Shown: piece by piece, positions 1 through 64,000 of the stretch
Layout of the letters: the number at the start of each line of letters is the position of its first letter
Position numbering within the stretch: position 1 is the stretch's first letter
Virus record (IMG/VR): IMGVR_UViG_3300045988_039227
Span: 41,364 to 105,363 of that record
DNA: 64,000 nucleotides
Direction: 5' to 3' (one strand)
Origin: a virus
The notes under the pieces: generated by a model
Database searches by the model: none
Told to the model about the DNA's origin: nothing
Seen by the model: the letters and a program-made list of their open reading frames with translations, nothing else
Program-made: the position numbers and the translations under genes

Positions 1-3000
1 CTATACCAAGACTAACGGCTTTATCTACCTCAAGTTCGTACTGCTCCTAAAGTGTTAAAGCCATTATCTACTCTTGCTCTTCTCTAGACTTATCAAAGAA
101 CTGTTCATTAAGAGTCTTAAGCTATTCGTCAGGAGACATATTGCTTATTTCGTAGCGTTTAATCTAGCCGTCTTCATACACTCTAAGTGTCGTAAGTGAT
201 TTAAACTGAATACCACCAGGCTACTTTCCTTTCTTGCCGATGTGATAATTCATTATCTTGTCTTCATCATTAAGTACGGGTAAGCCCTTAGGGTTATCTA
301 CATGTAAACCAAGTTGTTCTCTACAATCAAGTATAGCTTCACGCTCTGTATAAGCATATTCGATAAACTGATTTAATACAGATTGATTAGGCTGCAAATA
401 GTAGTGAGAGCTATCTAAGAATATCATCTTTGGTGCACCGGATACAGTATAAGCACCATTGTCTAACTACCCGAACTACATTCCAGGGATATTTATACCA
501 CCAAGAACCATATATGTACCCTTATCGGCAAGGGTTGGGAATACACAATATCCATTCTGAAGCATTGCGAACTTATTAATATAATCTTCAGCTTCAGCAA
601 GATTGCTATATTTAGAACCATTGTCACCACGATTATCAGACTTGAAGCCAATAGGAGTATAAATACTAATATTGAAATCTTCTCCGTTCTGCAATTGCTT
701 TGCAACAATAGAACCCATGTTCACGCCATTATTATTCATAATGTTGTAACTAGACTACAAAATAGTCCTTACTACCATATTGTTCTTATCATGACTATTA
801 AGGTTCTCTGTAGTATTGCTAATACTATTGTTCTATGACTCGTTATACAGCTTAGTACCATCCATACCATTAGACATCTTATCTGTAGTAATCTTCATAT
901 AGGCTCCAGCCCAGTTACCTAATTCGCTAACAAAACCAGTCTTAAATATCTCGTCTACAGCCTTCTGTGTTGTATAACCATTTGTTTGTACGACTTTGCC
1001 GACTGCATCAATAAAACTATTAATATTAGATACACCAGTAGATGCAATCCACTTTTTAAGGGCTTCTCTACCAACGCCATTATACTTTGTAGATAACATA
1101 TGATCGAGCATTTCTTTTGTAAAGTTTATACCAAGCATATTAAACTCTTTGCATATATCATCTTTAAGTACCTCGATATCACTATTAGATGCTGCGCTTC
1201 TAATCCTTCCGTTTATCTTAAATTCACTAGCAGAATCATTAAGTATCTACGATTGTAAATCAGAGAAGAACTGAGATATAAATCTAAATGCGTTTCTTGC
1301 TACAGTCGTAGGCATATCTACCTAAGTATTCTTTGTGTTATACTTTGTAGAAAGAAGCAATTGTCCATTCTACCCAACATACCTCTACAATAAGCCAGAT
1401 TGACCAGAAGATAAGAACGAGTTCCAAAGCTTAGGGTACATTCTGGCATCTCTGTCGAAGTTTGCATCAGATATTTTGACTTCAACACCTCCGTTCTTAT
1501 TACGTATAGACCTACCAATAATAAAGTTGTGTTCATGGCCCTTTATAGCTGTAAAGATTTGTATCATAAACGCTTCTTTATCGAAGTCTATCTTTTCAAG
1601 CTAATTATCGTCGTTGAATGTATAGATAGAATTGTATAGATCGCTATACTTCTAATAGATTGCCATATACATAGGGTTCTGCGTAGATAACTCCTGCAGT
1701 CTATTTAATAAGTCTAAAGGAGTTTTAACATCATGTAACTTGCTAACAACTACATTAAATACCTGCTTAATAGGCATAAATGTAGGAACGCCATATATGT
1801 TCTTAGATGTATCAAGAGCAAGTTTACCGTTATCATCAAACTTATAGTAAGGTATTGTAGCAAAGAACATCTTCACTGGCTTACTTACAGAATCAAGCTT
1901 ATTGAACTCAAATGCGGACTTATCGTATCTTTCGATAGACTTTCCATAATCATTCTCTTCCTGGTCACTTGTCTCAGAATCGTCATCATGCTGATATTTG
2001 CCGTCATAGGCATCCATTATTTCGGTAAGATACTTCTATACTTCTTTTGATATAGCTGAGAAGTTAGGGAATACAACATCACCTTTATCATTTAATTCTG
2101 CGTAAAACACTTCTCTAAATGCTTGCTGTGTAGGAGTAACTGAATCAACAGACATATACTATCCATTCAGAACGGGCTTAACAGAACCTGGCTCGCCAAT
2201 AAGGTTGTTTATAACCTTCATTGGTATATATTTAATAGGAAGTTCTGAAGAGCTGTGTACTGCATCATATATATCAGTAGCATCTTTAGCAGACTTTACT
2301 ATAATATATCCAAGAGCTCTAGCCATATGTTCCTTCTCAGCGGCAGAGCCTATATGATCGAATTTGCGTCCATTTATTTCATAATGCAAGTCTTCGCCAA
2401 ACAGCTTTTTAAATCTATCTTGCTGTTCTTTGCTTACCTATTTATCTGCATATTTTCCAGACTTAATATCGTTGAACAAAGTAAGAACCGTTTTAGCATT
2501 GTTTCTGTAATGCCACAAGATACTTAATCTGTTAGCTACTTTCTTTATATTCCTCTTAATCCAGCCTTGTTTCTTTATAGCATTAGCGTCTTTTGTGCCG
2601 AGCATATAATCGACGAATAAATCAGCCAATCCCTCAGCTACATCTCTTTCTGTAGCAGCTTCTGGATGAGCTTTTCTGTATGCAGAATACATCTATTCTC
2701 TTACAGATGGCTCTACAAGTAATTCTAATGCCCTATGGAATCCTTCATGGAAGCCAATAGTATAAGGAACTGAATTAGACATCTAGATAACAGCATCTGT
2801 ACACCTAGCAAGTACTGCGCTATTCTTTTTATAAGCTACATCTGATAACCTTTCGCTTTCTACCCACTATGGAGTAATACCTGTTGTCTTTCTGACCCAT
2901 TCATCAACGGCACTAGCAAATGATGGCTTTTGTTTCTAGCCTTCAAACTCTGATAAATCTTGTTCATAGAACAAAGACATAAATGTGTCTTCGGCCTACT

Positions 3001-6000
3001 TTTGCTGCTATTGAATATCTTGTTTAGCAACTGTTTTAGATGCTTGCTGAGCGCTTCCATTTGGATGATTTTGTACAAGCTCTACATTATCTACGTATAC
3101 TGTAGGAGGATCAAGTTTAGCTGCATATGACATTAAATAACCATTGCGCAGCATATAACCAAGACCGGTAGTACCTTTGCCATCATGAGTAAAGTCTTCT
3201 CTTGTAAACGTAAGACCATTTGGAAGTTCTACTTTATCAAGGTTAGGATTTGATGCATATTGCGCATTAAGCTTAGCTAATACACTATTATGTGATGACT
3301 ATATATATTGCTGCATATTCTACTGAACAAATGCAGCATCTTTTGTCATATACATATTACACAGAGCATTGTAGATATTAGCGTAGTCTACACTAGGATT
3401 TTGCGTAGGGTAAATAACATTACCTATTATAACTCTCTTATTAGCCGGATCTAATGTAACAAGACCTTCTATTGAGTTATATTTCTCATTTAATACTTTA
3501 TTGTCAGCCTTAATATAAAGAACCTGCTTAAGTAAATCGTCTATAGAATATCCTTGATACTCATTTAAACCTTGATAACATTTATACCATATAAGGTCTG
3601 CAATCTTATTAGCCTAACCACCTTGACCAGCAGTAAATTTAGGCTGTATTAACGGCGTACCAATACATCTATTATCTACAGCTTTCTCAGTCTGACCAGT
3701 ATCATAGAAGTATACAATATTACCAGATTGTGTTATAGCTGTACGTTTTATATATTCTAGATCAAATCCACTAATTAAAGTTGATAATTCTGGGCCACCA
3801 TATACCATCTTCGTTACGTCACCAGTGTTTACGTTTTGTGTAGCCTTAAGGAAACCTATTCTGTTACCAGCGTCGCATGTAATATTGTACAAATCATGCT
3901 AATTAAGCGTTCCTGCGAACAAGAATTTACTTACAGGCTATAATTCACTACCGTTCTTAATTGAACCCTTAGAACGGCTTAATTTCATGCTTATATGGTA
4001 TCCTGGATGTGTTTTCATAAAGTCGAGCATATACTTAACTTTCTATACAAACACAGCATCTGCAGCTTTCTTTCTAGCAAAATATACCGGATCAACACCC
4101 CTTGGACCAGCGTCATTACCCTGGTCGAATGTCATAAAGATTGTTCTGCCTTTAGAATCTGTAAGCTTAAGCTATACTTCATTATTTCTCCACACAAGCT
4201 CAGCATTACCAGATTTTCCAGAAGCATCTGGGTAAATCAAATGCGGATCAAGCGCTATAGAGAAGTAATGCGGGTCAAGTTTAGCCCTAAATGCAGGGAA
4301 ATGTTTAGTAGTATCACTATACAGCTCTCTCCATTGATCGTCAATCATATTGATACTCTACGCGCTGTTTGTATCAAGTATATCGTCAACATTTGGATCT
4401 ACAGGGAATCTCTGGTTATATTCTCTAATGAAGTCTTCTGCATCATAAATAGTATCAGTAAGCGCATTATCAAGAGCTGTATTTGTTTTCTATACATTCT
4501 TTGTATTATCAGTCAAGAACTTAAGCTAATTATTTATAACCGTACTCCAGAATCTTTGCAAACTCTTGTTGCCAACAAGGCTATTCATAAACTCGCCATC
4601 AAATGTAGCAAGGAATGACTTAATCTTGTTAAAATAAGTAAAGCTAGGATTACCAATATTAGATGAAAATTGAGTCTGCCACATTTGTAAGGCCTTATTT
4701 GCAGCGTCTCCGTACATCATCCTATTGTCTACTAGCTTATTAATAGCTGCTGCTATAAGCTTCTGCTCTGGAAGGGTATCGCCAACTTCAAACTAATCGC
4801 TACCGTAGAATTGGTCAAGAGCTGTCTAGGCATCATATATTGAGTAAATAAGCTCATTAACTTGAGCTCGTTCGTCTGCTGTTGTAATATTAAGGTTTGT
4901 AATAGAACTTAACAGCGTATCAAGTTTCTTGCAGATTTCATGAATAGTATCAAGACCCGCCTAATATTGTTCATCTACAATAACGTGATCAAACGCATCT
5001 TCTGGGTAGAATCCAGGTACAGTATTCTCGTGCTATTTAGGCTACATGAGCTAATTTAAGCGCATCTGAGCGTCTTCTTTTAAGCTCTGGATAGATTCTA
5101 TAGCTGAGTAAAGATCTCTCATCTGAAGTAATAATTCGTCCTTATTTGAGCCTTCTTTAAATATATCGTAAGATGGTACAGTTTTATGTTCGCCACCAGC
5201 TTCAGCAATACTATCGTATATACTTTGCAAATCAGACATAAGATCGTTTACTTTATTCTGCAAAGGTCTGACAACTTCGTTAGAAATATCTTCATTAGAT
5301 TTATTGTAATATGGTGTTACAGGCTTGTTGAAATCAAGCATTTCTACTTTAAATACAGGTTCTGCTACAATTCCACTCGCTGTTCTATCATAGTAGAATG
5401 GCATTACGTATGTGCCTTCAATATTAGAACCAAATGTATCGTAAAGTACCTAATTTAATCTTTGAAGCTATCTCTATTCCTACTGGATCATTGTTTCTTT
5501 AGCTCGACTATTGGACTTCTAATTACCAAGCATTCTGGTTTTTATGTCTGGTTTAAATGAAGATCTAACATCTATAACAAGAAGCTATCCATCATTATCA
5601 ACAAGTACAATATCAGCCTATGATTGTATAGCTCTGCCTTTGTCATCATAGCCATAAATAGGAATGTCTGTATCAAGTACTCTATACTGACCGCCGTTGA
5701 GCATTCTGTCTCTAACAGACTTAACATACTGCTTAGCATCTTCTAGTCCATTCGGATTATCTAACAGCGTGTCGGCAAAACTATCGTCATTTCCTAACAT
5801 TATAGCCTATGCTAGTTCCCTAATAGTTTCTCCATCCCTTATAGACTGAGAATTAAAATAAGCTGTATCTATTGATGCTAAATAATGAGCAAATCCCTAT
5901 AATAATTCCCCTTTATTTGGCTGAGAAAATATTGTGTCAATTATATCAGAATAATCTTGATCTCCGAATCTATCTGTATTATCTGCAAGATATCCAAGTA

Positions 6001-9000
6001 TCTACTATTTGTCAGAGATGTTTATATTTTCCTCAATTTCTGGATAATGAGACTGATATTCAAGTCTGTCTATCTCGTCTATATTTTCAAATACATGTAG
6101 ATTATTATTATCGTCGTACGCTATTGTTGTATGGAAACAATGTACAATAGCTCTGTTCTATTGACGCTTTAAAGCCTTTCTGTATCCATCGAATGATGTA
6201 TCTTGAGAGGCATGTGTGGCAACTTGTGCTCCATAAGATTGTACATCCATAGGAGTATTCATATTCTCCTTTTCTTTACGTGTTGATGTAAGGTAATGGC
6301 GAATATACATTGCTTTTGCTAAAGCTAATACTGAAGGTCCGCCGTCCTAACCAGTCTCTTCTTGAAGAATAGTTTTTATATCATTGTAGAGCTATTCAAA
6401 CTTATAGAAACCAACCTTAGCGTTCTCCATAAGACCATCGAATGACTACATTGCAAGTTCATCAAATCCAAGTAAAAATGATACTCTTGCTTTATTGCGC
6501 CTAGCTTTGCGCTTCTTTCTATAATGCTCTCTAGCCTTATCTCTACGACGTTTATATTCTTCTGCGTGTTTCTAAAGCTCCTCTGTAGTAGCTATATGCT
6601 TTTGCTAAGTTTCTGTTGGGTCTACAGCTTGCTTAGCTTGAGTATTAATGTCTTTTATATCTTCCTATGCAGCTTTAAGTATATCATTCTAGTAATCCTC
6701 TGTAAGCTTTGTTACAGCGTCTCCAGAATATATATCGGATAACATCCAGTCTATATTTTCATTCTGTTTGTTTGCATCGATAATCTTTGTGATACGCTCG
6801 TTAAGCTTACTCTTTGACCCGTCTTTAGCCGCAGCTCTAGTATGTTCTTCTGGCTTATATTTATCACCGAGCTTCTGCTTTAACTCAGCCTGCTTTCTCT
6901 GATACCTAAGCTCATCTGGATTATACTCAAGATTACCATTATCATCACGTGTAACGCCTTCTGTGTGAATTGATAATGTAGAGTTAAGTAAGGATTCGTT
7001 AGCTGTATACATAGCTCTAGCTTGTTCGAGCTCCTGGATCTCGTTATCATTAAATCCAACAGACTCGCTAAAATTGTTCAAGAATTGTAATGTCTATTCG
7101 TCTGTAGACTTCTCGTCGAAATTCTTATAAGCTTTAGCTAAACTTTGCTTTGCGCGAGCAATTTGTTTATCTATATTAGCAGACAACAACTTAGCGTCAG
7201 GTCTAACGGTCTTTAATCCAAGCTTATCGTGAGCAAACTTAAATATGTCATCAATAGAATTCATCTTTGCTTTAAGTGTAAGCAATGCTTTCATTCTATT
7301 GTGAGCTTCAGAATTTCTCTGGAAGTTATTTATATGTCTATCGTGCTCTTCTTTCTATGAGCGCTCAACAAACTTTTCGCCATATTCGTTTGCTTCATCT
7401 TTGATAGATTCTTTGTATTCTACTACAGATTTTTCTACTTCCTCTTGAGGCAAAGCTGCTGTATCAAGAGACTTCTTGTACTCATCCACCTTTCTGTTAA
7501 CATAAGACTCGATTGCCTTAGTCTTTGCTGTAGCTGCATTTATAGCAGTTAGCATAGGATCTCTTGACTATTCCTATCTATTTACAGCCTGTTCTACCTG
7601 ATTTTGATAACCTTGCTGTCCGTAAATCTACTGAAGTCTAGCCTCGGCTTCCTACTAAGCTTTTCTGTTAGCAGTTAACTATTGCTCGATGTTAGCCCTA
7701 TCAGCTATAGCTACATTGTATTGTTCTGTACCTTTACTGATACCTTTAAGACGATATTGCTGTTCAGTCTACTTATTGTTTACGAGAGCAGAAATACGCT
7801 CCACATTAGACTGTAAATCATTCCAATACTGTTCACCAAAACGTGGTCTCTCTCGCTTCAAATCAGCCTCTCTGAGCTACTATATTTCTGTAGTCAGCTA
7901 ATTATACCTTCCCTTAGAGATCTGGTCTGAAATAACAGCATTACTAGCTCTATTCATCTTTCCTTGTTCTCTATCAAGAAGCGCACTGTGCATTATAGCG
8001 TCTTTTACTTGTACGGTGTTCTTAATGTCATTAACGGCATGATAGATGTTCATGGCTACCATAGGATGCATACCACCCATAGCAAAACCACCTCGCCAGT
8101 TTGACAACATCTCCATATCGTTATAAAGTTCAGATTCGCCAAGACCAAACATACCTTTATAGAAGTCTGATACCTCTTTGCTATGAGCCATATCCTGGAA
8201 TGCAAGACTGAGCAAATCAGCTGATCCGTATCCATATGTCTTAGCAAACTCTTCAGCAGCATTAGCATTCAACTGCTGTACAATTTCTTCATTTCCTTCA
8301 GACGCTCTATCTATAATACCTTTTCTAACCGTATTGATACCGTATTTGTTAAGCATTTTGAGAGCAGTAACTGTATTAGGATTCTTTACGGCTGCTTTCA
8401 GTAGTTTTCTCTTCAGCGTTTTAGCTCCAACCATAGTTGCTAATGCTTCAGCCTTCTTCGCTATAGCCTCACTAGCCATAACTCCTGCGTCTTTTAGAGC
8501 TTGCGGCATGACTTCTTTTGCAAGCCCCTTTACTCCCCTAGCAACTTCTCCTGCGGCAGCACCAACTCCAGCGCCAACATAATGTCCAAGAACACCACCA
8601 CCAAGTACATCCATTGTTGTTGAGCCAATCTTTGCACCAGTTTTGCCAGCTGCACTTGTAAGAGAGTTAACATACTGTCCAGCCTGTGCAAATTTACTTT
8701 CAACAGCTCCGTTTAATCCCGCGAGAGCATAGTCTGTACCAATAACCAATCTTCCAGCTTTACTAGTGGCAAGCTTTGCCCCAAGTTTTGTTGTAGGAAG
8801 TTTATAGATGGCTTGTCTATAAAGACTTGATAGACTATTGCCTGGCTATACATATGATATAACGTTTTGAACAACTTCTGTACCCATCGTTCTAGCGTTA
8901 TCTACCATAAATTGCTATTCAAGACCTTTTGTTGTACCGAGTTTAGCTTTAGATAAACGTGGATCATTACTCTTTGTAACGCCCATTAGGTAATCACTAA

Positions 9001-10585
9001 GAACTTTTTCCTTACCTTGCTGTGTATTAAGATTATATCTATCCTCGGCATCTTTCTTAGACATACCATTCTACATTGCAAATTTTACAGACTGCTTTTG
9101 CAAATCTTTATACGATGCAGAAATACCTTGTGCTTTACCGGAAGCTTCCTACGCTTCGTATTTATTAAGATTCTATTGATAGTTCTAGGTCCAACGTTGA
9201 GCAATTTCAGCGTAGTTCTCATCTTCTGCACCTTGCAGATTAAATGGAAGTGCAGCTGCATTAGCAGCGTTGTACAAAGCAAAACCAGCTTCTGGATGTC
9301 CGGCTGCTCCCAAAGCAAAAGAACCGACAGTACCAGCAGTTGTTATAAGATTACCAATATTACCTGTGTCTGAAGACCAAGAAGAACCCATCTGTTGAGG
9401 CAAATTCCACAACCAATAATCAGGTGTTAATAGATCATCATTAGCATGTATATTTGCAAGATTCTCAGCATGTTTACTAACGTTCCAGAACTTCTTCCAC
9501 TTAGACGCTCTACGCATCTAATCGTCAAGAGTTTCTTTGTAATCCTTAAGATCTTGCTAACGCTTAGCTTTAAATTGATTTGCTTCTATTTCTTTTTGAT
9601 CCAAACTCATTCCTTGATGAGCCTTTTCAAATCTATTGGATAGCTACTTATTATAGTTATCAAGCCAATCCCTAGCCATCTACTCTTTGGATCTACCTGT
9701 GCCGTCAAACATATCATTTGTGACAGCAAATGCCTTAGTCATAGCAGCCTGAAATCCTTCCCACATAGATGTATGATCTTTCATCCATGTAGCCTTGTAT
9801 GCATCGGCGAGTTCATTTAAATCTTTGTCTTGCAGCTAATCGTATGTTGACAAGATTTCTTTACCAAGTAAATACGTATCTTTCCACGCATCTCCTTTAA
9901 CCTAAGCTTTAGGATTAGCTTTAAGGTAATTCCATTGGTCTTCCTTTGATTTAAGATCTCTTTTAAGTCGCTCCCTTTTGGACCATGCATCAGCTTTTGC
10001 CTAGTCTGTCTAAGCTAAAGCGATTTTACCCTTTGTGCTTTCAATTCCAAGATCGCTAGACTGATTTGAAAACAAACCAATTCTCTAGCCAATCTTCCAT
10101 AACGTGAATTGAAAACTATCTTTTCCAAGTTCGTTTATACCGCCAATATCAGAGCCAACAGAATTTTTGTAGATATCAGTCTTTTTAAAGTCTTCAAACA
10201 GCTTATCTTCCTCAAGCTATGTTTGCTTCTCTTTCTCTGCGTCAGAAAGTATACCTTCCGAGTCATCTTGGGCATCAATCTTTTGTCTGTTTGATCTTTC
10301 TTGTTGCTTGTATAAGCTGTCAATATGTTTATTCCAGTCATATTCAGCTATAGCATTTTTCTATCTCTGAATAGATTTTTGACTAGGCTTATACCAATCC
10401 CCGTGCGGCATTATATCAGACTCTAATCTAGAACCAGATTGTCTTGATATGTAACTTGGTACATTAGCCTAAGTCCTTTTATTAGGAACGGATTGGCGTT
10501 GATTTGGTAGCGTTATACCAAATCTTTTAGCCTATCCTCTAAAATAGTCCTCTGCTGGGGACTTAAGTAAATTGTAATTTGCCAT
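1..10585 (-). CDS. giant virion-associated protein, first >=3528 codons (3' end runs off the left edge of the window)
   Basis: The ATG is at 10585..10583. I read every codon of this frame (plus-strand triplets starting at positions = 2 mod 3) down to position 2. There is no TAA or TGA, and about 90 in-frame TAG by hand count. The 16 track ORFs from 221..427 to 9185..9517 all lie in this frame, and every 3' end I checked is TAG. Gly/Ala-rich hydrophobic stretches occur near the N-terminus (track ORFs 7898..8749 and 9185..9517). Function is not recognisable by eye. Its size and its position after the tail genes resemble the giant ejected/cargo or virion-RNAP proteins of crAss-like phages (inference). 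Confidence 0.8.
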
Positions 10586-10592
10586 AATTTAA

Positions 10593-12047
10593 TTAATTTG
10601 CTTTGTTAGGTGCTTTTCCTATATATCCAGGTTTGACTTCAACCCAGATTGTTTGTCCAACTGCTCCAGCTGATTGATTATTATTTACAGATACAACGTT
10701 AGCCTTGATATAATACCTACCAAGTTTCTTGTTATATGTAGGACCAGATGTTACTGTTGCAGTAATCTTCCTTCCAGGTGTTCTATAGAGTCCAAAGTTA
10801 ACTCTCTTTGATCTACCTTCATTTAACTATCTAAACGCTCCAGACTTGGCTATATATTGTCCGTCATTAACGGTAATAATCTATTGTTTAGTAGATTGTG
10901 TCTATTTATTATCGCTATCACCCTGCGATCGAGACTATGTATATTCATTCCATTGAGCATCTGGGTCTGCAAGTGTTACACCGTTAGCTCTAAGGTCATC
11001 TATTGATGTTGATACTGGAGTATAAGGCTACTCTCTAGCTGTATCAAATATAGTCTTATAATTACTTCCGGAGGAACTGTGATCCGGAATACCATTTGCA
11101 GCTCTTTTTACATCATCTGCGTATTTGTAATCCAAAATAGCCTTTTGATTAGCGAGGTCTCTAGCAGATTTCTTTGCATCAAGCTAATCAGCAAGTATAT
11201 TCTAATAGTTGAGTAAAGAATATTTATTAGGATCCCATGCTATATTCTTCTTTCCTTCCCAAAGTTGCGCAACAGTACTCTACAATTGCTGTTTAACCTA
11301 ATCGTCTGTAGGATTAGTTACACCAGCCTACTGTAACTGCTATTTGGCTTTATCGTAATAATATTCGCCTGCTGCTGTAGACATAACAGACGGGATTGCC
11401 TTGCCGGCTGTATCCATGATCATCTAATCTGTAATACCAGTGTAATCATTCTTTGGATCATACTTATATCCCATAGCCTCAACTTGTTTCTATGTAAGAT
11501 TACTAGGTTTGAGTATACTATAAGGAATCTTTGTAAGATCTTCTAGTGTGTCCATCTTCGTTGGAGCTAATGTATTCCAACTTTGTGTATATGGGTCAAA
11601 CTTATCATAATCTAACCCATACTTCTACATTTGCCAACCAAGCTAATCCTATGTAAGTTTTCCTTCAGCAACCATAGAAGCAGCTGCTTTCTAAAATGTC
11701 TTCATATTGTCAGCGTCAGCTTTCCATTTAGAGATCTTATCATAAGGTGTCTCTCTAATGATCTTGGCTATATAAGCTCTACCTTCTGCAGATCTAAGTG
11801 GGTCTATACCGTTCTAATACAAGTAATTAAGACCAGCGTTAACCCTGCCCTTTGTCTAATCATAGTAAGCTTTATTTAAACTAGCGCTTGGGCTATATAG
11901 GTCTCCGAATTCCTTAGCAAACTCCTTCTATTCTTGTACAGCCTAATTATATTGTTCTCTTGCAGCACTAATGTACTACGACATCATACTGCTATCCAGT
12001 AGGTCTATAATAGGGACCGCTACTGGTTCATCATACATTCCTATCAT
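10593..12047 (-). CDS. hypothetical virion protein (484 aa with TAG as sense)
   Basis: Frame 0 mod 3 was checked codon by codon. The ATG at 12047..12045 overlaps the upstream stop as TAATG; an alternative ATG is at 12038. There are about 22 in-frame TAG, and the first TAA is at 10593..10595. TAG sits in Gln-rich contexts, e.g. AAA-TAG-CAG-TTA-CAG-TAG-GCT. TAG density leaves no track ORF of >=60 aa here. Confidence 0.75.
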
Positions 12048-13648
12048 TATCTCAATCTTAAGCTAGTTATATTGTATGGGTTGTAATCAAATATACCTCC
12101 AGCCCATGTTGGTAAGAATAATCCATTAGGACCAAATCCGCCAGTATAATCGCTAGAGAAATTAATTCTCTCATACGGCGTACCAAATGCGCCTCTCTAG
12201 TATTGCTCTTTAGATTTAGCCCAATTTCTTGTATACTTTGCAGAATCGGCAACTTTATCTGGATCTATGTACCAATACTTTCCATATGGTGCCTTTAAAT
12301 TATTTAAAGAATAATCATCATATTTTAAATCAAGCACACCTCTATTTATTCCTGTGTCCTAATTTGGTACATTAGGTGATCCAGAAAACAACTAATACTT
12401 ACCAGGAGTCCAACCTGGAGCTATGTTTTTATAATTAATAGAGGTTGATCCAGGTGTATTGTCTGCTTTGTTTGTAGATCCGCCCTTTATACCATCTGCA
12501 CCTATACCGTATATTGCTTTTAAAGCAGCATTCTTATTATCTATATCCTATTGATACATATCAAGAATATCGCCATACTGCTTGTTTTTAATACGCTGAG
12601 ACAGCCATTTCTGACCAATAAGACCAAGGTTAGACAAGTGTGTTTCAATACCCTTAGTCTTAGCGCCGTGTGCTCTATTATAAGCCTCCCATCCATATTG
12701 GTTAGACTGCTGTAATCTCTATGCGTCACTATCACCAAGTCTAGCAGCCATTTCGGCATAAGCGTTTCTATATGCAGCGTTCTTCTCCTGCACATTCATT
12801 AGCGCATCTGCAACGTTTCTCTAATTACCCAAAGCTAAGGCTACTCTATTAGCCTATCTTTGACCACCTGTATAACCACCAGAATTAGCGAGCTAATAAG
12901 CAGCCTATCTATCTTGAGCGTACAGCTTTTCAAGAATAGGATTAGCTGATACTCTATTACCAGCCATAGTCTGTAAAGCTATTGGCGCGTATTTATTAGC
13001 TGCATATATATTTGGCATTACAGGATTTTCTCTACGCCAATGATTAAGCATCTGTGTTTCAAGCAGCGCTGGGAATGCATATCCTGCATCAAGCATAAGA
13101 TTTGACACCTTTCCTTTACCTGATTTAGACCAACTCGAAATAGCCTATTTTGTTTTATCCCATAAGCTTTTGCCATTATCAAATCTATCTTTGCCACAAT
13201 TATGCTTAATCTGAGCTGCATAATCCTCGATCTAATGCTACTTCTCTTGTCTATCTGTAATATTCTTCATAGCCTACAAAATAGGGGCTTTAGCGCGATC
13301 CAGCTGATTCTTCTAAAGTTCCATCGTCTATTTTGATAAAGAGCTAAGTTCGGATTTCTTTCCAGCTCTTTTCTCAATGTTGTTATACATCTAAAGCTTT
13401 GCTGTTAATGGGGCTATTTGATCAGAAAATTTCATACCGTTGCTCCAGTCTACATCATTACCAGCTATAACATTATTATCGTTTACACTAACAGAGCTAG
13501 GCTAATTATCAACTCCAACCTTTCCTTTGGTTACAAGAGTTCCTGTGCCATTAGTATAATCTATAATGGACTCCCCTTTGCCAACTAAACTATTTACAGG
13601 ACCACTCTAATATCCATTAGGTGTCCATACTTTATTTCCTTTTAACAT
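12047..13648 (-). CDS. hypothetical virion protein (533 aa)
   Basis: Frame 2 mod 3 was checked codon by codon. ATG at 13648, about 18 in-frame TAG, first TAA at 12047..12049. It contains track ORF 12905..13108. Confidence 0.75.
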
Positions 13649-14365: not shown

Positions 14366-17300
14366 TTAGCTCCATGACTATCTATATTTTGTTATTATAT
14401 ATTGTATTGCCATAGCTGGATTTGGTTTTATATCTTCTATACTGCAAATCATAACCTTGCCTCTAGCTCTATTGCCAAATAATCCATCAGCCCTAGGTAT
14501 GGCAAATCTATGATTATTTTCTCTAAGTGTTATCTGCGCTTCTAGGTTGGATTCTATCTTCTAAGATTCTGTCTACCATACGTATTTATGATTCTTTGAA
14601 AAATAATCATCCTAATCAGATATCATTGCCTATAACTATAGGTTTTCATATGTAACAATTTCTTGATTATCAAACACCTTTGTAACAAGCGGCTATTGAG
14701 CAACAACGTATTTAACGTAGCTTGAAAGCAGCTGCTGAGTTGTTGATTTAGGTGATCCATCAAGGTAGTCATACTAATATATGCATACGGTATCGTTTTT
14801 CTTTACAAGATATTCTCCGTTAAAGAACTGTATAGCTCCATCAAATGGTATTGTTAATGTTGATGTAAACTTGCCAAGCATTTCGTTGTACACAATCTAC
14901 ATATCATTACTTAAGACATTAAATACAACTTCATTATATCTATTATTGTAGAACACCTTAAAGTTGTAGTCCTTTTTATACTTGTTCAGTATATTCTATA
15001 CTTTACCTTGCTTTGAAAGCTATGTTACACTCTATCCATCAAACAAACAAATTACATTATTATGACTATCAAACCAATACAAACCACCGGTAGTGCATGC
15101 TGCACAGAATTGCTGTTTATGCATTCCATAGGTATTGCTGTAGTAGTCGTATCTATCAAGTACTCCTCCTGTTCCGAGCACTATGTTTTGCCCAGAGTTG
15201 TCTGTAGCAACACTACGGTCATTAACACTTAATATGCCAAACGATTGTTCTTGACAAAATGTAAGAACATTCTTAAATGTGCATATATCAGTTATAGGAC
15301 CATACTCCTGATCAACATCTATAAAGTTAGAGCTTCTAAATTTACACCAACTATCTATGATTTCATCATTTTGTTTCAAATCAGAATAATATACTCTTGT
15401 ATCTATAGTTTTATTATAATCTTGTGGATTAAGATCATCGTATACAGCAAGTGGAATACTTGTATTCTATACACTATAGACAGAATTATAAACATACTCT
15501 GGCTCCTTTTGTACGTAAGCCTCGGTTATCTCGCATGGTTCAGCCTATATAAAAGATGCATAGTTATCTCTTGCATTAGAACTGAATGTCCATCCATATT
15601 GGAACTTGCACCATATATTTGATTCTGTTGGTATAGAGTATGTTATCATATGTGTGTTAGGGAACTATAACTCATCTTTTCCGCCCTTTGTATAAGCTCC
15701 GTACACTTTGTGCATGGATGTATATTCGAATGTCTCTACATGACAATCTCCGTCGAATACGGTATTCCAATCGTTTTTAGACTCGAAGTAGTTACCGTCT
15801 CCGTAATATATATTTGTAAGTCTATTTGTAAACGAATACCCGCCATAAGGAGTTATTTGCTATCTAAGATTAGTTAAATAAGTTCCAAGTAGAGTCGGCC
15901 TAATTATCTTGAGTATTTCACCAATTTCACCAGGTTCTGTCTAATATGCTTCCTGTTTAAAACTATCGTAATAATTGCCATTCTCTGGATAATAATAAGA
16001 AGTTGCACCAGCTGTACCATTTTCTTTGTACTAGCAGCTCAACAGTAAACATTTTCCGCCAGTTCCAAAACATGCGTTTTTATTACCATGCTTACCAGTT
16101 CCATCGCCTTTAAATCCACCATTATAATTACCAAATGATTCAAATATATTGCCATTAGTGTCATTACAAATGCCACCGGTAACCATATTTGCAAACAGCG
16201 CTCCTCCAGCAGAAACTGCATAGTTAGGATAAGATTTTGATGATGCCTATTCGTCATTATCTTTATTAAAGTTTCTTTTGAATGCCTAATCCCATTTTAT
16301 CTGGTCAACTAACTAAAAGTCTTGTATATACTATGTTCTCTAAAACGCATTATTCCACCAATCACCTGGATCAAAAACACCAGTACTAAATTCGTATGGC
16401 TAAGTGCTCTATTCATACAATTTTATATACGCAAAAGCTTTCTGTATTATAAATTTACCAGCTTTTTCCTACCTTTTGTCTGCCGACTCATTATCCTTAT
16501 TGTATAGTCTATCAAAATTTAAAATACAATCTTTAACCAAAGAGTATGAATAAGGTCTCACATTTCCCAATCCGCCAATTGTTCCGGAATCTAAAATATT
16601 ATCTATAATTTCGTTGCCAGTATTACCACCTCGTGCTTTATGTGATTGTGGATTCACTTTATAGAAGTAGCTAGGATTATATGGTGTATCTAAATAGCAT
16701 ATTGTACTGTCTTTGCTAAAATGGCTATCTACAGTTAAATCATTAACATAAAATATTCCTCTTGAATCATCACTATCTTTTGGACCAGGAAATAGCTCTA
16801 CGGCACAGTTTGATATACATGGTATTATAAATTTGAAGCTTGTCCTACCATTAAAGCCTCTTAAGCTTCCATAATCTGTATTTGTTTCACCATCCCTATG
16901 TGAATCATATTGGTTGTCTTTAAACTTATAATCTCCTCTAGCTCCAAACAAAAAAGACTGTTTTTGCAAATAATATTTTTTGTCTTTTGTAAATTGTTTA
17001 AATGATTCTGGCTGATAACAAATTTCTTTTGAGACAAATTGCAATAATTTATCATTATCTATATTTGTCATACACTGTGATGAAAGATCGTCTCCGTCTC
17101 CAATAAGCTATTTGAGTGAATTATATCCTTCTATAAACTTGTTGGTTGTTAAAAATCCGGTTGGGCAAAACATATGATATTTCGTTACCTGATACTCGCC
17201 ATTTGCTTCATATTGCTTACTATACGTGTTAGACACAGGAGAGCTAAGTACACCTTGTGATATTGTAGCAATATCAGATTCGTGTCTAGCGCATCTAACT

Positions 17301-19078
17301 ATCTGATAGCCAGTACATCCTTCTGGCAAACTTTTTATCATGAACTATATTCCTAGATTTCTGATAACTAGTTCATAACGTTTACCATTAACAATAGTAT
17401 TTGATGACATCAACTAAAAGCCTTCTTCTGTAACATTTGGAGTTCTTATATCAGCGATCCATTTAACTGGGGATGCTTGGCAATATTTATCATACAAAAC
17501 AATTCCATAACGATAAATCTCGTTTCGTCTAAGTGACTTTATTAACCATGTGTTGTTATTTATTCCTGGATCAAATTCTGCTTTCTCTATTTCAGATGGT
17601 TTAAAATCTTTATCTATGTAAAAGACGTTGTTCTACTTTACGTTTTCTTTTTGAGAATAATTGTACAATGTTCCTATTTTTCTTGTATTATTCTCTTTTA
17701 CGCAGGAGTCTTCAACCTAAGGGCTTATAACAAATCTCCATTCTATGTTTTTACCAGATCCACCTACCCATCTATATTTTGAATCGAATACAAAATTAGC
17801 AGAATATAATGAAGCTTCTTTATTTATGTTATTATAAGTATCATCATAACAATCGTGATCAAATGGAGGAACGGCAACGGAGTCACTTTCTATGTCGTAT
17901 TTGTGCGCATCTATTGTAAATGTGTCATTACCATTAACATCTGTTACGATACTTTTGTTTTCGTAATTGAACCTAAATGCTCTCGCGTCCCATTTATCGA
18001 AATCCTTAATAGTAGTCTGTATTGTCTTTGTGTTTGCAGCAAACAGGAAACCATCTTTAGACGCTAATGAGTTAGGTATTATTCTAACACCTTGTAATGA
18101 ATTTAACTCTTCGACACTGATCTATTCTATTGGATCATTGCCAACGTCGTTTATTATTAATTCCGAAGAATTATATTCATCAAAATTTATTTTAGCATCG
18201 TATATCACAGATACTATTGGCATCTATCCGTTTTGTGTATACTGTACCCTAAATACTTTGATGTAATCAAGGTGCCAATAATCGCTAGGAATTTGTATAG
18301 ATATCTTTACTCCACAATTTGATTGCGCGCCCTATTTGCCACCGCACTTTACATATTTGCTATCGAAGTCATAATTACCAATTGGTATTTGCTGACATTG
18401 TATAGATGCTCCCGTATGTATTCCGTACCTATTGTATAACTGGTAACAATAGCTTACAACACCAAACTCTATCTTTCCTGGCACATACTCTTCAAATACT
18501 GGCGGTTTACAAACCGCTTCTGGATAAGATAAACATTTGTTAAGATCACTGTATATTAAAGGATCATCTCTATTTATATTAAAAACCATTATCGGATGCT
18601 TAGAGTCAGCCAAGTATAGCTTGATATTATTTTCGCTCTCATAATTAAGCTAAATATCAAACACATCTGGATACTTCTCTCCTTTATCTAAAGGTAATAA
18701 TTCTGCATCTACAACAAGTTTACTCTTCTATATATCGTTGAAGTCCTGGTCGTGCACTGTTCCACCTATCGCATTTTTAAAACTATAGACCTTAAGTCTG
18801 TTTTCATTTTCATCAACGCAAACAACTACTCCATAATCTCTTATTGAACCAGTAGCAACAACTTTGTTACCCTCACCAGCAAGTAATCCAGCTAGCTTTA
18901 CACCCTAGACTGGCATTAATGATCCATGTCTATTATCTCTACCTTCTCCACCTCTGTATGATGATATTTTTATATTTCTAGCATCAATATACTAGTTTGT
19001 AGCAACAACAGAGAGATCATCATCACTATTTAATCCTCCTGCGAAACTATTAATTTGTGGTTCAGTATTAGTATCCAT
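14366..19078 (-). CDS. large tail structural protein (1570 aa), possible tail hub/muzzle-type protein
   Basis: Frame 2 was checked codon by codon. ATG at 19078 (preceded by in-frame TAA at 19097), about 37 in-frame TAG, first TAA at 14366..14368. It joins track ORFs 15032..15379, 16469..17071, 17108..17341 and 18332..18613. The functional label comes only from size and position. Confidence 0.75.
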
Positions 19079-46695: not shown

Positions 46696-48759
46696 TTAAA
46701 ATGTGAATATCGGCATACCGTCTTCACTTGTGCTGCTATCTTCTTCAAACCATTGTTTGCTAAATAACGGCATCTCGAAGAGTTCAACCTATTTGTTTTG
46801 TTCTTTTGCAGACGAAACCTTCAGCTAATAAAGCTCTTCTCTATATATCATAACCATGCATAGAGCAATCAAGCGGTCAACGTTCTTTACTCCATCATTG
46901 GCCATAAGCTCTTCTATCAAGGCTTCGCTGTATACTCTTTCTACATTAGGGTGACCTGGTTCATACTCATCTAGCAGCCACTCTAATATTAATCCTTCGC
47001 CATATGCCCTAATCTGTTTGGTCATGTGGCATCCTTTTCTTCTTTGCACTTTGCTGTCTTTAAAGACTTCAGATATGATTTTATCTGGCTAATCAGCCAA
47101 GAGGTAATCGCAGTGTTTATTCGTAAAGTAAGGGTAGATTCCTTTTCTTTCATTCTCAAATAATAATCTAGCGTTATAAAATGTAAGTAGCTTACGCACG
47201 TTCTCGTAGTACTCTTCTGCTGTATCTGGTCTTCCAGAATATTCTGCTACTATTACATCTGTCCATGCCTCACCAGCTCTTACACGTTTAAATATAAATG
47301 TAGAACCGAGAGAGTTTGTAAAGCTATCATCATGATCATAAGGGTCACAGCCTCCTATGTATAAACCTAAAGGAGGATCCTTTACTGGGTACTCCCATAT
47401 AACTACAGATCCATGAGGCTTATCTCCTTTCTTAAGAGGGTAGTTAGTTATATCCCCGCTAGGCTTTTCTGTAGCCTTTACTTGACCATTTCCATCCCAT
47501 TCTAGATCAACTATATGCTTCATGCTCTAAAGTTTCTTGTTGGTCCTTATTCTGGTCAACTGGTCCATCAATAACTTTCTAGGGAATATATTCTTACCAA
47601 GCTCAAGTACAGCCTCTGCTGGTCTAATAGGACGCTCTGATATAAAACGGTCCATAGACTACTGGCTGGCACCTCCATCTTTAACTTTATTGCGTTGTTC
47701 AAGAAGATTCTCAATAGCTTTCTCTTTATAGCTATTACCATCTTTGTCCATGTAAATCTAGTTGCCATCGTCATCGAATGACTCTAGATTAGAATAAGCT
47801 GGTACAAAGAATCCGCATTCTGTATTTTCTCTACCTTCATCCCACTTGTTTGGGAAGCTAAGTACATTATATGCCTTAGGTTTGTAAAATAATTCTTTCA
47901 AACCATCGAATGATGCACCTTCTGTACCACCTGTACCAAACGCAATCATTGTACCGAATGCTTTGCCATCGTCAGTTTCTACTGAAGGTTGTTCAATACG
48001 CCATGCGTCAAGAAGGCTAGGGAATTTACCTCCCTCCTCCCATAGTACAAGTTTACCACGGGTACCACGAATACGTTCAGGGTCATTCTTCAACGTAATG
48101 CCTACTATGCTAGAAAGGTATCCTCGTTCAGTCTATTTACCAAACTCATCGGTAACTTTGTAACCTGATACTCTTTCCATACGGGTTGACACAAGCCTCT
48201 GTTTAGCCCATGCTGTGTGCTGGTCAAGGAAGTCCATTATCTACCATGCTTTAGTAAGCAAGCCATCACCGATAAGGAATTTCTGTTCTGAAGCTACAGC
48301 AAAGTTCTTAGAACCAGGAATAAGCATATAATTTCGTACGAGCATCGAAGCTCCTTTAAATGAATATCCACGCTGTCTGCATTTAAGTACAGCCATATGC
48401 TTACCTTCTAGTTCTGCTTGCTCTATGGCGCAGAAATAATAGTAATCATAGTCCCAGAAGCTAGGGAACTTAAGAATACGTTCTCTTCGCTTTCTAAGAT
48501 TACCTTCCCTATCAGTGTACTCTGTTTCCTTAAGGGCCATGATAGGACTATAGTTGAGATAGAAATAATTAAAACCTGTTATACCTTCTCCATCTGGAGC
48601 TGTATAACCGTTAAGGCATCTATCTGTTTCTTGATCCCAATATTTGTTATAATCAGTAGTACCCATAGGAGCTAAAGTATAACATCCGTGTTCCTAAAAG
48701 AAGATAGCTGCCTATCTAAACTTATCGGTGTTATGGAGTTTTTGTTCGAAGTCTACCAT
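46696..48759 (-). CDS. terL: terminase large subunit (687 aa)
   Basis: Frame 1 was checked. ATG at 48759 (TGA at 48769 upstream), about 10 TAG, TAA at 46696..46698. It joins track ORFs 48241..48666, 47758..48093, 47089..47523 and 46825..47049. It has a Walker-A-like CRQRGYSFKG, a Walker-B-like KLVLWEEGG, and a nuclease-domain GGCDPYDHD motif. Confidence 0.85.
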
Positions 48760-57345: not shown

Positions 57346-57903
57346 TTAGGCCTATCCTTCACTTACCTCAGCACCATCTTGTGCCGCCGCTGGCTCTGGT
57401 ACGGACTCAACCTGTTCCTTAAGCTGTGACTGAGTTCCCGTAGCTGCGCTACATTCGTTTTCAGCTCCTGTGCCAGTAGAACCAAATCCACCTTCACCTC
57501 TCTCTGTTGATGAAAGTTCGGAAACTTCTGTGATTGTATACTCTGGTATAGGAACGATGACTAACTGACAGAAGCGCTCACCCTGCTTATAAATAGCAGG
57601 AACAGTATCAGTTGTAGCCTTCATAAATGCTACGATCTCGCCTCTAAAGTCACTGTCGATAACACCGACATTATCAGTAAGCCATAATGACTTCTTCCAA
57701 ATACTAGAGCGTGGTATAAGTAAACCAACATATCCGGCAGGAACCTCAACTGCCAATCCTGTATGGTAAACCAACATTAGCTGATTTGCTTCATTAAGAG
57801 CTGTTTCAATCTTAGTACAAGTCAAATCAATTCCTGCAGCACCTTTTGTGCCACGAATAGGGAGGATAGCGTTATCCTCAAGTCTCTTAAATTTTAACTC
57901 CAT
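57346..57903 (-). CDS. dut: dUTP diphosphatase (dUTPase) with acidic C-terminal extension
   Basis: All five dUTPase motifs are visible: AGIDL, IPRSS, GVIDSDFRGEI, RFCQLV and RGEGGFGSTG. There is no internal TAG. The ORF reaches TAG at 57352, then GCC, then TAA at 57346..57348, giving 183 aa to the TAG or 185 aa to the TAA. Confidence 0.9.
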
Positions 57904-57927
57904 AGTATTCTTTAATATTTATTATTG

Positions 57928-57999
57928 TTACCCCACCAGGATTCGAACCCAGACTAAGAGGGTTAGAGCCTCCTGTGCTAGCCGTTACACCATAGGGCA
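57928..57999 (-). tRNA. amber suppressor tRNA, anticodon CUA (probably Gln-accepting)
   Basis: A hand-folded 72-nt cloverleaf on the minus strand. Acceptor TGCCCTA/TGGGGTA; D arm GTGT-AACGGCTA-GCAC; anticodon arm GGAGG-CTCTAAC-CCTCT (U33, CUA, A37); variable TAGT; T arm CTGGG-TTCGAAT-CCTGG; discriminator A. U1:A72 and the GGUGUAACGGCUAGCAC D arm resemble Gln/Glu-type tRNAs (from memory). Confidence 0.85.
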
Positions 58000-58104
58000 A
58001 TATTGTAGAAGCTCACCTTAGGCTATCGAGCTTTTTATGTGCCTAAAACTACTTTGTTGCGAAGACTCGATTCGAACGAGTGACCTCAAGGTTATGGATT
58101 AAGA

Positions 58105-58178
58105 TGCGGAAGTAGGATTCGAACCTACGTAGAACAGCTTATGAGACTGTGCTGGAACCACCTCCAGTCTATTCCGCG
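58105..58178 (-). tRNA. tRNA-like element with CAU anticodon loop, non-canonical D region
   Basis: On the minus strand: CGCGGAA-TAGA-CTGG-AGGTGGTT-CCAG-C-ACAGT-CTCATAA-GCTGT-TCTAC-GTAGG-TTCGAAT-CCTAC-TTCCGCA. The T arm, anticodon arm and acceptor are good (again with C1*A72). Two extra nucleotides lie between the acceptor and D stems. It overlaps the 3' end of the endonuclease ORF. Confidence 0.5.
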
Positions 58179-58594
58179 ATGTTAATCTTATTTAAAATGG
58201 AATCAAGCTTATAATCACTTGCCAAGTTTATATTGTAATAACAATCACTTGGATAATCTAGTCTAAATGTCATGCTGTTTACGACATCGCCAGTTACAGG
58301 AACCATGTACACAACACCGTTTACGATTGTTGCTATAAAATCAACTTGATCTTTTGTATAAGTTTTTGATACGGATCCATTAGCACTCGATCGCTTATTT
58401 TTAAACGGAATTGTAAATCGCTTTGCGTCTAGCATGTGTGCCGTTTTTATTTGGATTCTATATCGTTTATTTTTAAAATCGAATATACAATCATATCTAG
58501 CATTGTTCCCGTAGGGAATACTAACTATTCCGTATTTCATTAATTCAGCAATAACAAGTAATTCTGTTATACTTCCGTTCTGTTTATAATCCAT
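58139..58594 (-). CDS. PD-(D/E)XK homing-endonuclease-like protein (141 aa to TAG at 58169; 151 aa to TAA at 58139)
   Basis: Track ORF 58169..58594. The pattern GSITELLVIAELMKYGIVSIPYGNNARYDCIFDFKNKRYRIQIKT ... VDFIATIV...VYMVP matches my memory of the group-I-intron-associated PD-(D/E)XK endonuclease family (the I-Ssp6803I type), with D..(Q)IK in the catalytic position. There is no internal TAG. Confidence 0.6.
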
Positions 58595-58656
58595 ATTTAA
58601 TCATTTTTAATGAGCCTTGCGAGCTACCAACTGCTCCACTTCGCGATAAATTATTG

Positions 58657-61199: not shown

Positions 61200-61595
61200 A
61201 TGGATAAGAAGAAGTGTATAATAGATAAATATAACACAGTATATGGATTTAATCTGTTCGTTATAATTAACCCAGATAAGTCTGTAATGGACAAAAGATT
61301 TGCATTTAGGCAAGATGAATCATCTATATATGATGGCGAATGGGCTAAATATACGGCTTATACAGTAACTGGGGCATATGATAAATCAACTGATGAAGAT
61401 TGTGAAATTATAGTAGTAAACAAGATCTGGAATGATGATAATGATATAAATACATTTGCTCACGAGTCATTTCATGCAGCTGTAGACGTACTTGAGGCTT
61501 GCCATATAAAGCTAACTGATGATACAAATGAAGTATTCGCATACTTAATTGGATACTTTACTGAGTGTGTAAACAAAACAGCAAGTAAACGATGA
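61200..61595 (+). CDS. putative zinc metallopeptidase-like protein (131 aa)
   Basis: Intact TAG-free ORF ending at TGA. It contains an HExxH motif (HESFHAAVD). Confidence 0.5.
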   Translation: MDKKKCIIDKYNTVYGFNLFVIINPDKSVMDKRFAFRQDESSIYDGEWAKYTAYTVTGAYDKSTDEDCEIIVVNKIWNDDNDINTFAHESFHAAVDVLEACHIKLTDDTNEVFAYLIGYFTECVNKTASKR

Positions 61596-61606
61596 ATTAG
61601 TTTGAG

Positions 61607-62062
61607 ATGAGTGCTGTACTATATTATGCCGACTTCTTATCTCTACAATACTAGAATAAACCGTGTACAGAATAGTGTAAATATTTCTTTATACATGGAG
61701 TACCAGTAAATATAGCATATATTGTAGAACAGGAGCCGATATATGACATTGATAACCAATGGTTCTAGAAGAGCCTTAAGGAATATAGTATGCTAAAGCA
61801 TAAATTTGGCGAAGATGGAGCTATGAGCTTTATTAAAAACCTATGCAATCTAGGGGTAGCAGGATCAGTAAATGCTACACAAATGATGAAATACATACAT
61901 AGATACGACGATAAATAGGAGCGAGATAAAGCGTTTAGAGCATTTAAATTCAATAGATCAAAGATGAAATATACTCACTTAACACATAACGACGATGGTG
62001 AAATTGTAGAGGAAGAGTGCACAAAATACATAGCCCATGCTGAGCGAAATAGCGAAAGATAA
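61607..62062 (+). CDS. hypothetical protein (151 aa with 4 TAG read as sense)
   Basis: ATG at 61607. Reading through TAG at 61652, 61673, 61772 and 61913 gives a continuous plausible protein ending at TAA 62060..62062. No track ORF of >=60 aa exists on this strand here. Confidence 0.6.
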
Positions 62063-63741: not shown

Positions 63742-63942
63742 ATGGAGATTCTAACAGAGCAAAATAAGCATCTTCCATGCGTAACAAATAAAGCGTATGA
63801 AATAACTCTGTTTTTAATGTTTAACAGAGAATTCATGAATGATGTATATAGAACATTTAGTATTATTAGCCGGGGTTTGCGCCTCGGCTTTTTTATTTTC
63901 TATTTTTTTTTATTTTACAAGTGTAAAGACGCGAAACAGTGA
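63742..63942 (+). CDS. doubtful small ORF (66 aa)
   Basis: Track ORF. Its 3' half runs through a strong terminator hairpin and a poly-T tract, so at least that half is unlikely to be coding. Confidence 0.2.
   Translation: MEILTEQNKHLPCVTNKAYEITLFLMFNREFMNDVYRTFSIISRGLRLGFFIFYFFLFYKCKDAKQ
63868..63900 (+). terminator. Rho-independent terminator
   Basis: AGCCGGGG-TTTGCG-CCTCGGCT forms an 8-bp stem followed by TTTTTTATTTT. Confidence 0.7.
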
Positions 63943-64000
63943 AATAGCGCTCCCCCGCCCAAGTACGCGATCCGGGATACCCCCGTCAAAGATTCTAGGC

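Follow-up and report, generated by a model that had tools for sequence, protein, structure and literature searches.

Very probable decoding of TAG as glutamine in the virion genes of a crAss-like phage close to Burzaovirus

How are genes translated when their reading frames are punctuated by TAG? The question is raised by a 64-kb stretch of viral DNA (GC 36.7%; positions 41,364 to 105,363 of the IMG/VR record IMGVR_UViG_3300045988_039227), referred to here as the window, for which a first-pass annotation had proposed from the letters alone that TAG is a sense codon throughout, most likely for glutamine (Gln). The results described below indicate that TAG is a sense codon in the window and that it is, with high confidence, translated as Gln in the virion or late genes by means of a phage-encoded suppressor tRNA. 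Judged by its sequence, the window would cover roughly two thirds of a phage genome, that of a crAss-like relative of Burzaovirus (Crassvirales, Suoliviridae, Oafivirinae). Membership in the Crassvirales and in the Suoliviridae (Delta group) is indicated by the crAss-type major capsid protein (MCP), the terminase large subunit (TerL) and the portal protein, together with synteny with classified members. The nearest RefSeq genomes found by megablast are Burzaovirus faecalis cr124_1 (NC_055899) and Burzaovirus coli cr7_1 (NC_055895), which share the gene order of the window and have 88-91% nucleotide identity with it in blocks at 12.5-22.4 kb, 34.1-55 kb and 56-63 kb. Because this identity lies under the 95% species threshold, the window phage probably belongs to another species. 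The left 12 kb of the window and a fibre segment at 22.4-34.1 kb, by contrast, have no megablast match in the two genomes.

The window was scanned under each possible set of stop codons, and open reading frames (ORFs) of at least 300 nt were summed. Under genetic code 11 such ORFs totalled 38.9 kb and the longest had 1,539 nt, whereas with TAG as a sense codon the total was 89.6 kb and the longest ORFs had 10,588 (open at the left edge), 4,731, 3,645 and 3,318 nt. Making TGA or TAA a sense codon in place of TAG gave no long ORFs over the whole window. Among 100 shuffled sequences, none had a TAG-sense ORF longer than 942 nt, compared with the 10,588 nt observed, or more than 2.8 kb in ORFs of at least 600 nt, compared with 59 kb. 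A greedy, non-overlapping TAG-sense map contains 51 ORFs, covers 97.3% of the window and includes 433 in-frame TAG (415 when counted from the first ATG). The minus strand carries nearly all of the mapped ORFs (2 to 60,923), and the plus strand has a short divergent block that begins at about 61,000. As the map is delimited by TAA and TGA, the absence of these triplets within the merged genes, which had been reported in the first-pass annotation, is true by construction; the reading is tested by how tightly the ORFs are packed, by how much of the window they cover and by the shuffle control. Under code 11 the genes fall apart, i.e., the contig yields about 84 short fragments compared with about 50 genes, and the hallmark genes become unrecognisable.

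The ends of 49 of the 51 mapped ORFs were tabulated, two minor plus-strand ORFs being dropped. With the open ORF at the left edge excluded, TAA closes 38 and TGA 10. It had been stated earlier that every gene ends at one of these two codons. The table bears this out, except that such an end is not demonstrable for the dUTPase and for an endonuclease ORF, because their sole TAG sits 1 and 9 codons, respectively, before the TAA. Overlaps of the type TAATG and ATGA, also mentioned previously, occur at 7 and 3 gene junctions, respectively. T is the next base after 21% of the in-frame TAG, a share similar to that for AAG and GAG, while it follows 31 of the 48 true TAA or TGA stops. A joint reassignment of TAA and TAG does not describe the window: TAA ends 38 of the 48 ORFs that close inside it, mostly at tight junctions, the addition of TAA to TAG as sense lengthened no real window gene, and no TAA is found among the window codons aligned to cr124_1 and cr7_1. 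Thus, the recoding in the window is amber-only.

The genes of the virion block on which the comparisons draw are as follows.

2..10588, minus strand: giant ORF of the virion block, present with its 3' part (open at the left edge), with 90 in-frame TAG
10593..12047, minus strand: ORF of 1,455 nt with 22 in-frame TAG
12047..13648, minus strand: ORF of 1,602 nt with 18 in-frame TAG
14366..19078, minus strand: 'virion structural protein' of 4,713 nt, named from the cr124_1 gp13 ortholog, with 38 in-frame TAG
22368..24356, minus strand: tail-fibre protein (Pfam Phage_fiber_rpt, 5e-19) with 10 in-frame TAG
38485..40017, minus strand: MCP (Pfam Crass_capsid, 1.5e-209) without TAG
44221..46692, minus strand: portal protein with 15 in-frame TAG
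46696..48759, minus strand: TerL of 687 aa with 10 in-frame TAG

The first-pass annotation had given about 90 TAG for the frame at the left edge, about 37 for the 4713-nt gene and 22 and 18 for the 1455- and 1602-nt genes, and had described TerL, the portal and the fibres as recoded in the same way; these values are reproduced here to within a single codon. Both of the Gln-rich motifs that it quoted are in frame on the minus strand, TAG-CAG-TTA-CAG-TAG at 11342, inside the 1,455-nt ORF, and GAA-TAG-TAG-GAG at 26467. The giant ORF matches a 16.3-kb gene of cr7_1 by position and size. TerL and the portal protein align end to end with their homologs at 31-92% identity, the highest value being that of TerL with its cr124_1 counterpart, and in TerL, portal and fibre proteins homology continues past the TAGs.

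The identity of the amino acid was approached through codon alignments with cr124_1 and cr7_1. The codon opposite a window TAG is TAG at 149 sites, CAG at 32 and CAA at 15, and any other codon occurs at most 3 times. Exchange of CAG for TAG was found at 35 of 215 sites, while the values for the other one-step neighbours were 3/436 for AAG, 3/290 for GAG, 2/218 for TAC and 0/118 for TGG. It follows from this pattern of exchange that TAG behaves as a synonym of CAG and CAA (CAR), and synonymous with CAR it is in these genes. Eleven more distant TerL-portal loci were also read at the codon level. In seven of them, i.e., cr10_1, cr50_1, ProJPt-Bp1, cr116_1, crAss001, FpV4 and IAS virus, in-frame stops are absent, which implies the standard code. 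Tabulation of the residues that these homologs carry at the TAG positions shows Q at 40% of the window TAG sites in cr10_1 and cr50_1 (~55% identity), compared with 37-39% at canonical CAR sites and a background of 5%. An empirical likelihood calculated from the seven standard-code homologs ranks Gln first, followed by Lys (delta lnL 14) and Glu (delta lnL 20), while Ser, Leu, Tyr and Trp are all more than 95 units away. Gln-family codons amount to 5.2% with TAG, as in standard-code relatives, and to 3.2% without it; among them TAG is the most used in the window (415, compared with 361 CAG and 295 CAA).

Protein databases were of no help for this assignment. In a database of 5.8 billion proteins, full-length TerL sequences of 687 aa are 93-98% identical to the window TerL, which indicates that public pipelines already translate the lineage with TAG as sense. 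These matches were dropped as evidence for Gln, since they are already TAG-sense translations in which Q is a convention, and the assignment was taken instead from the codons in DNA loci.

A candidate for the decoding molecule is located at the head of the TAG-rich virion block, where two features are relevant.

57927..57999, minus strand: suppressor tRNA with the anticodon CUA and a tRNA-Gln-type body
57346..57903, minus strand: dUTPase, named from the cr124_1 and cr7_1 ortholog, directly downstream of the suppressor tRNA

Phage-borne suppressor tRNAs had been mentioned in the first-pass annotation as known from some crAss-like and other gut phage lineages, and one is indeed present. It scores 51.5 bits against the Rfam tRNA model, lies just upstream of the dUTPase gene and leads the tail, TerL, portal, capsid and fibre genes. 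The syntenic tRNA(CUA) of cr124_1 and cr7_1, likewise beside the dUTPase, is annotated 'tRNA-Gln' in RefSeq, and homologous CUA tRNAs of cr60_1 and cr125_1, which carry the same label, occupy another position just upstream of TerL. Neither the anticodon nor its 5' flank (C32-A37, CUCUAA) varies among five homologs, which come from three subfamilies of the Suoliviridae. The stems contain 7 compensatory pairs among the 4 distinct sequences, and 97.6% of the stem cells are paired, versus ~45% when the partners are slid. This covariation argues that the tRNA is under structural selection. When the suppressor tRNA was folded by itself for minimum free energy, no cloverleaf was obtained (z = -0.5); weight is therefore given to the covariance model and the compensatory pairs and not to this fold. 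The closest relatives outside the group are mostly annotated as tRNA-Gln. ARAGORN assigns CUG or UUG anticodons to three of them, including one from the standard-code Suoliviridae phage ProJPt-Bp1, and the body of the tRNA(CUA) is homologous to the tRNA-Gln(CUG) of that phage. The acceptor stem and D-arm stem sequences are the same as those of the tRNA-Gln(CUG) of phage Wildcat, and the anticodon has a single difference from that of a canonical tRNA-Gln, A36 for G36.

The E. coli amber suppressor supE, an allele of glnV, is likewise a tRNA-Gln with a CUA anticodon; it is weak and chromosomal and serves rare nonsense mutations. As in supE, a tRNA-Gln with a CUA anticodon would insert Gln at UAG against release factor 1. 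Unlike supE, the tRNA of the window is borne by a phage and would serve more than 400 codons, TAG being the most used codon of the Gln family. In the proposed sequence of events, the suppressor tRNA would be made and presumably charged with Gln via the Gln-charging pathway of the host, the charged tRNA(CUA) would compete with release factor 1 at UAG, and the TAG-rich late genes would then be read through to their TAA or TGA ends. According to the published model (Yutin 2021, PMC7886860; Borges 2021, 10.1101/2021.08.26.457843), a host with the standard code would express the suppression-free genes first, and recoding would delay the translation of late genes.

The decoding of TAG as Gln in the window is correct but already known, also for the closest published relatives, as the first-pass annotation had anticipated in calling the phenomenon not new. 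The RefSeq coding sequences of cr124_1 each cross 0-60 in-frame TAG and no in-frame TAA or TGA, and cr7_1 is likewise annotated with read-through TAG. TAG-to-Gln reassignment with suppressor tRNAs was reported in Delta-group (Suoliviridae) crAss-like phages (Yutin 2021, PMC7886860), and in two crAss-like phages metaproteomics recovered peptides across TAG-encoded Gln (Peters 2022, PMC9523058). In common with published 'genetic code 15' phages, the window has in-frame TAG in late and structural genes, where they may be concentrated, a phage tRNA(CUA), stops at TAA and TGA, and very probably Gln as the inserted residue, and it differs from them in nothing essential. The additional details are a TAG-free MCP, a probable TAG stop with a TAA back-up in the dUTPase, a gene that would be expressed before the suppressor, and a TAG-rich gene in the divergent block. 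These are three small, testable refinements; the biology involves no new principle, and the window offers a clean, well-controlled case of phage code switching. The practical consequence is the risk of misannotation, which has already been realised. In the GenBank record PV686213, a related phage deposited in 2025 and annotated by Prokka under code 11, TerL is cut into six 'hypothetical proteins', as would be expected from the earlier warning that any standard-code annotation fails here.

If the host itself read TAG as Gln, the phage tRNA would be a supplement rather than a code switch. In favour of such a host, TAG is abundant in one gene of the divergently transcribed block.

61592..62062, plus strand: gene with 5 in-frame TAG from the first ATG at 61592

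The first-pass annotation had reported 4 TAG in this gene from 61607 onwards, a count that is reproduced, and had concluded that recoding is not confined to the late block. That conclusion is sustained by this one solid gene, in which all 5 TAG are kept as TAG in cr124_1 and cr7_1 and whose protein has 47% identity over its full length to a Bohxovirus ortholog; both TAGs of ORF 61014-61595 are upstream of the probable true start (~61203) and were not counted. Scans against Pfam and PHROGs gave no functional assignment for gene 61592-62062 and the neighbouring small ORFs. The known late bias of TAG recoding holds in cr124_1, where it was measured, the window itself being without a replication module. 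The replication or early block of cr124_1 has 15 TAG in 7,820 codons (1.9 per 1000), the core replication genes having none, and the virion block has 391 in 19,901 codons (19.6 per 1000). A second sign of a TAG that still stops is the end of the dUTPase, GGA TAG GCC TAA in both the window and cr124_1 and of the same TAG-x-TAA form in cr7_1, where the single TAG is in the second-to-last sense position; TAG probably terminates the dUTPase, with TAA as a back-up when suppression is on. The third is the MCP, which has 16 CAG, no CAA and no TAG, an avoidance unlikely to arise by chance (P = 4e-4, for a genome-wide TAG share of 39%). The MCP of cr124_1 also has all of its Gln as CAG, and that of cr7_1 is TAG-free as well. 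It would appear that codons which depend on suppression are selected against in the most abundant protein. The TAG-poor replication block, the end of the dUTPase and the avoidance in the MCP are features to be expected only where uninfected cells read TAG as a stop. In addition, standard-code Bacteroidota hosts are predicted in the literature (10.1101/2021.08.26.457843), with Prevotella as the predicted host for the sister genus in a report that does not mention recoding (PMC12697116). A recoded host is for these reasons very unlikely.

The codon usage of the remaining virion genes is uneven. The portal protein under-uses TAG in comparison with its 44 CAG (P = 7e-4), as do genes 40036-41232 and 32760-34142, while in several tail and fibre genes TAG accounts for 50-90% of the Gln-family codons. 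The tail-fibre gene at 22368..24356 opens the variable segment (22368-34142), which encodes tail-fibre proteins rich in TAG.

A sense codon for another amino acid, whether Lys, Glu, Tyr, Trp, Leu, Ser or pyrrolysine, is an even slimmer prospect than a recoded host. K, N, R, D and E are also frequent at the TAG-aligned sites of distant homologs, and the tRNA(CUA) departs from E. coli-type glutaminyl-tRNA synthetase (GlnRS) identity at A73 and G2-U71. The likelihood, however, places Gln ahead of Lys and Glu and far ahead of the other one-step neighbours, the exchange in close relatives is almost solely to CAG and CAA, and the proteomics of crAss-like phages gave Gln (PMC9523058). The label 'Pyl' is given by ARAGORN to any CUA anticodon by default, while the window tRNA is a standard cloverleaf with a body homologous to tRNA-Gln(CUG/UUG), and pyl-like families were not found among the ORFs scanned, which are part of those in the window. 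That TAG is still a stop, with the short code-11 ORFs real, the genes decayed or the sequence faulty, has practically no chance and is already refuted by the codon exchange, the homolog alignments and the shuffles: code 11 does give many ORFs of 300-1,500 nt and one GenBank relative is annotated accordingly, but homology in TerL, the portal, the fibres and the MCP block continues across TAGs at 50-92% identity, a 10.6-kb frame without TAA or TGA is impossible by chance, TAG sites are either kept or replaced by CAR, the +4 base resembles that after sense codons, and the same structure is present in many independent contigs.

Several points weigh against the decoding of TAG as Gln by the phage tRNA in a standard-code host. 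The identity elements of E. coli GlnRS are G73, G2-C71 and G3-C70. The tRNA(CUA) has an A73 discriminator, with G-U at 2:71 and C-G at 3:70, and it is from sequence that we infer its aminoacylation with Gln. Genes for a release factor or an aminoacyl-tRNA synthetase were not found in the ORFs scanned, from which the giant ORF and several others were left out. For the window phage, the assignment to Gln comes from comparison of sequences, the published peptide data being from other crAss-like phages. The TAG-rich gene 61592-62062 is outside of the late block and would not be predicted by a simple early/late switch. Finally, the standard code of the host is taken from the published model.

With Gln retained as the residue inserted at TAG, suppression would seem from the data to be conditional and short of full efficiency. 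Early and replication genes are nearly TAG-free in cr124_1, the dUTPase ends in TAG-GCC-TAA and the MCP, the most highly expressed gene, has no TAG; such avoidance in the most abundant protein also suggests that suppression falls behind ordinary decoding in efficiency. Tentatively, and with somewhat less than even confidence, these observations may be joined in the proposal that amber reassignment in the Oafivirinae clade is neither complete nor final, that the meaning of TAG depends on timing, and that the clade can move to UAA and UAG as sense codons. TAG would be a TAA-backed stop before the suppressor accumulates, as in the dUTPase and, as a second candidate, the endonuclease ORF, and Gln thereafter. 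The capacity for suppression appears to be limiting, since the MCP has been purged of TAG. The in-frame TAA of PV686213 suggest that UGA could become the sole stop in the clade.

The genome PV686213.1 (Bohxovirus sp. 'endotrachealis'), which belongs to a sister genus, has both TAA and TAG in frame in TerL, the portal, the MCP and the giant genes of its late block (~2.1-65.3 kb). ORF coverage there is 95% with TGA as the sole stop, 74% with TAG as sense and 54% under code 11, and ORFs of orthologous size appear only when TAG and TAA are both sense; TerL then has exactly 2,064 nt, and an ORF of 16.1 kb resembles the 16.3-kb gene of cr7_1. The regions aligned to window proteins contain 21 in-frame TAA, 51 TAG and no TGA. 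At 11 of the 21 sites TAA is opposite a window TAG, CAG or CAA, and it aligns with the same codons in IMG/VR relatives. Eight IMG/VR contigs with a TerL 96-97% identical to that of PV686213 have 13-15 TAG and no TAA, which implies that the in-frame TAA is specific to the PV686213 lineage. An artefactual origin of the TAA codons is not supported, the spectrum of substitutions versus five relatives being symmetric and the data being from Illumina/metaSPAdes. No papers describing TAA recoding in phages were found. These ochre codons, along with the endonuclease-invaded tRNA genes described below, merit a further look.

The counterpart of the suppressor tRNA(CUA) in this Bohxovirus clade is broken exactly between U35 and A36, both in PV686213 and in three IMG/VR relatives, by an insert of 977 nt with an HNH-like protein of 301 aa. 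A second tRNA family of the clade (42.7 bits) has an unusual T-loop and a variable anticodon loop, with CUUUGG (UUG, Gln-like), CGUUAG/CGUUACG (UUA, a reader of ochre or amber) and CAGUAUG among its forms. The positions are given below.

PV686213 65192-66242 (L018 15192-16242): interrupted tRNA(CUA); also in L019 and L021, and in L020 as the junction of the insert and the 3' half only
L022 6429-6502: uninterrupted tRNA(CUA) allele with the loop CTCTAAC, in one IMG/VR contig
PV686213 78071-78143 (L018 28071-28142) and L023-L031: second tRNA family

The idea that the UUA-loop tRNA goes with in-frame TAA failed, as contig L030/L032 has a UUA-loop tRNA together with a TerL and portal without in-frame TAA.

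Unlike in cr124_1 and cr7_1, where the tRNA-Met is situated elsewhere, the suppressor of the window is adjoined by an additional cluster, with the following elements.

58056-58645, minus strand: initiator-like tRNA-Met (C1xA72), split in the anticodon loop
58104..58178, minus strand: intact tRNA-Met (CAU), initiator-like by its C1xA72 mismatch, inside the insert
58172..58594, minus strand: PD-(D/E)XK endonuclease ORF (Pfam PF11645, 4.7e-19)
58656-58738, minus strand: tRNA-like element with a 6-bp anticodon stem and a 14-nt loop containing CCUAAG
59059-59132, minus strand: tRNA-like element with a 6-nt anticodon loop (38 bits against the Rfam tRNA model in sensitive mode)

The 5' half of the split tRNA-Met (58645-58611) and its 3' half (~58095-58056) are separated by an insert of 516 nt, which contains the endonuclease ORF and the second, intact tRNA-Met; the anticodon stem of the latter differs from that of the split gene. 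The endonuclease ORF has an in-frame TAG after 141 codons, and read-through adds 9 codons. No group I intron core was found in the region of the split tRNA-Met at E <= 1. From its sequence, the insert looks like a homing-endonuclease cassette that carries its own replacement tRNA. Both tRNA-like elements have good acceptor, D and T arms and abnormal anticodon arms, and may be either pseudogenes or tRNAs of a non-standard kind. A tRNA-Met whose acceptor end is initiator-like adjoins the tRNA(CUA) in several Suoliviridae lineages, the pairs being located at L008 3196-3485, L009 2690-3410, L022 6083-6502 and 57927-58178 of the window, and the pair may constitute a small translation module.

Two further observations concern the relatives. 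A reverse transcriptase gene is carried by cr7_1 (L005 4850-5809), where it adjoins a tail-protein gene, and by cr130_1 (L006 1-90); a diversity-generating retroelement is possible in cr7_1, and the reverse transcriptase gene is not present in the window at 53991-57264. The Bohxovirus genome encodes RAGATH-15 and RAGATH-12 RNAs (Rfam 226 and 104 bits, respectively) as well as a permuted tmRNA. A tmRNA is also annotated in the RefSeq entry of cr124_1, and it is called by ARAGORN as well. The RNA loci of these relatives, all of them outside the window, are at L018 22765-23054, 23588-23666 and 30579-30768 and at L003 34357-34713.

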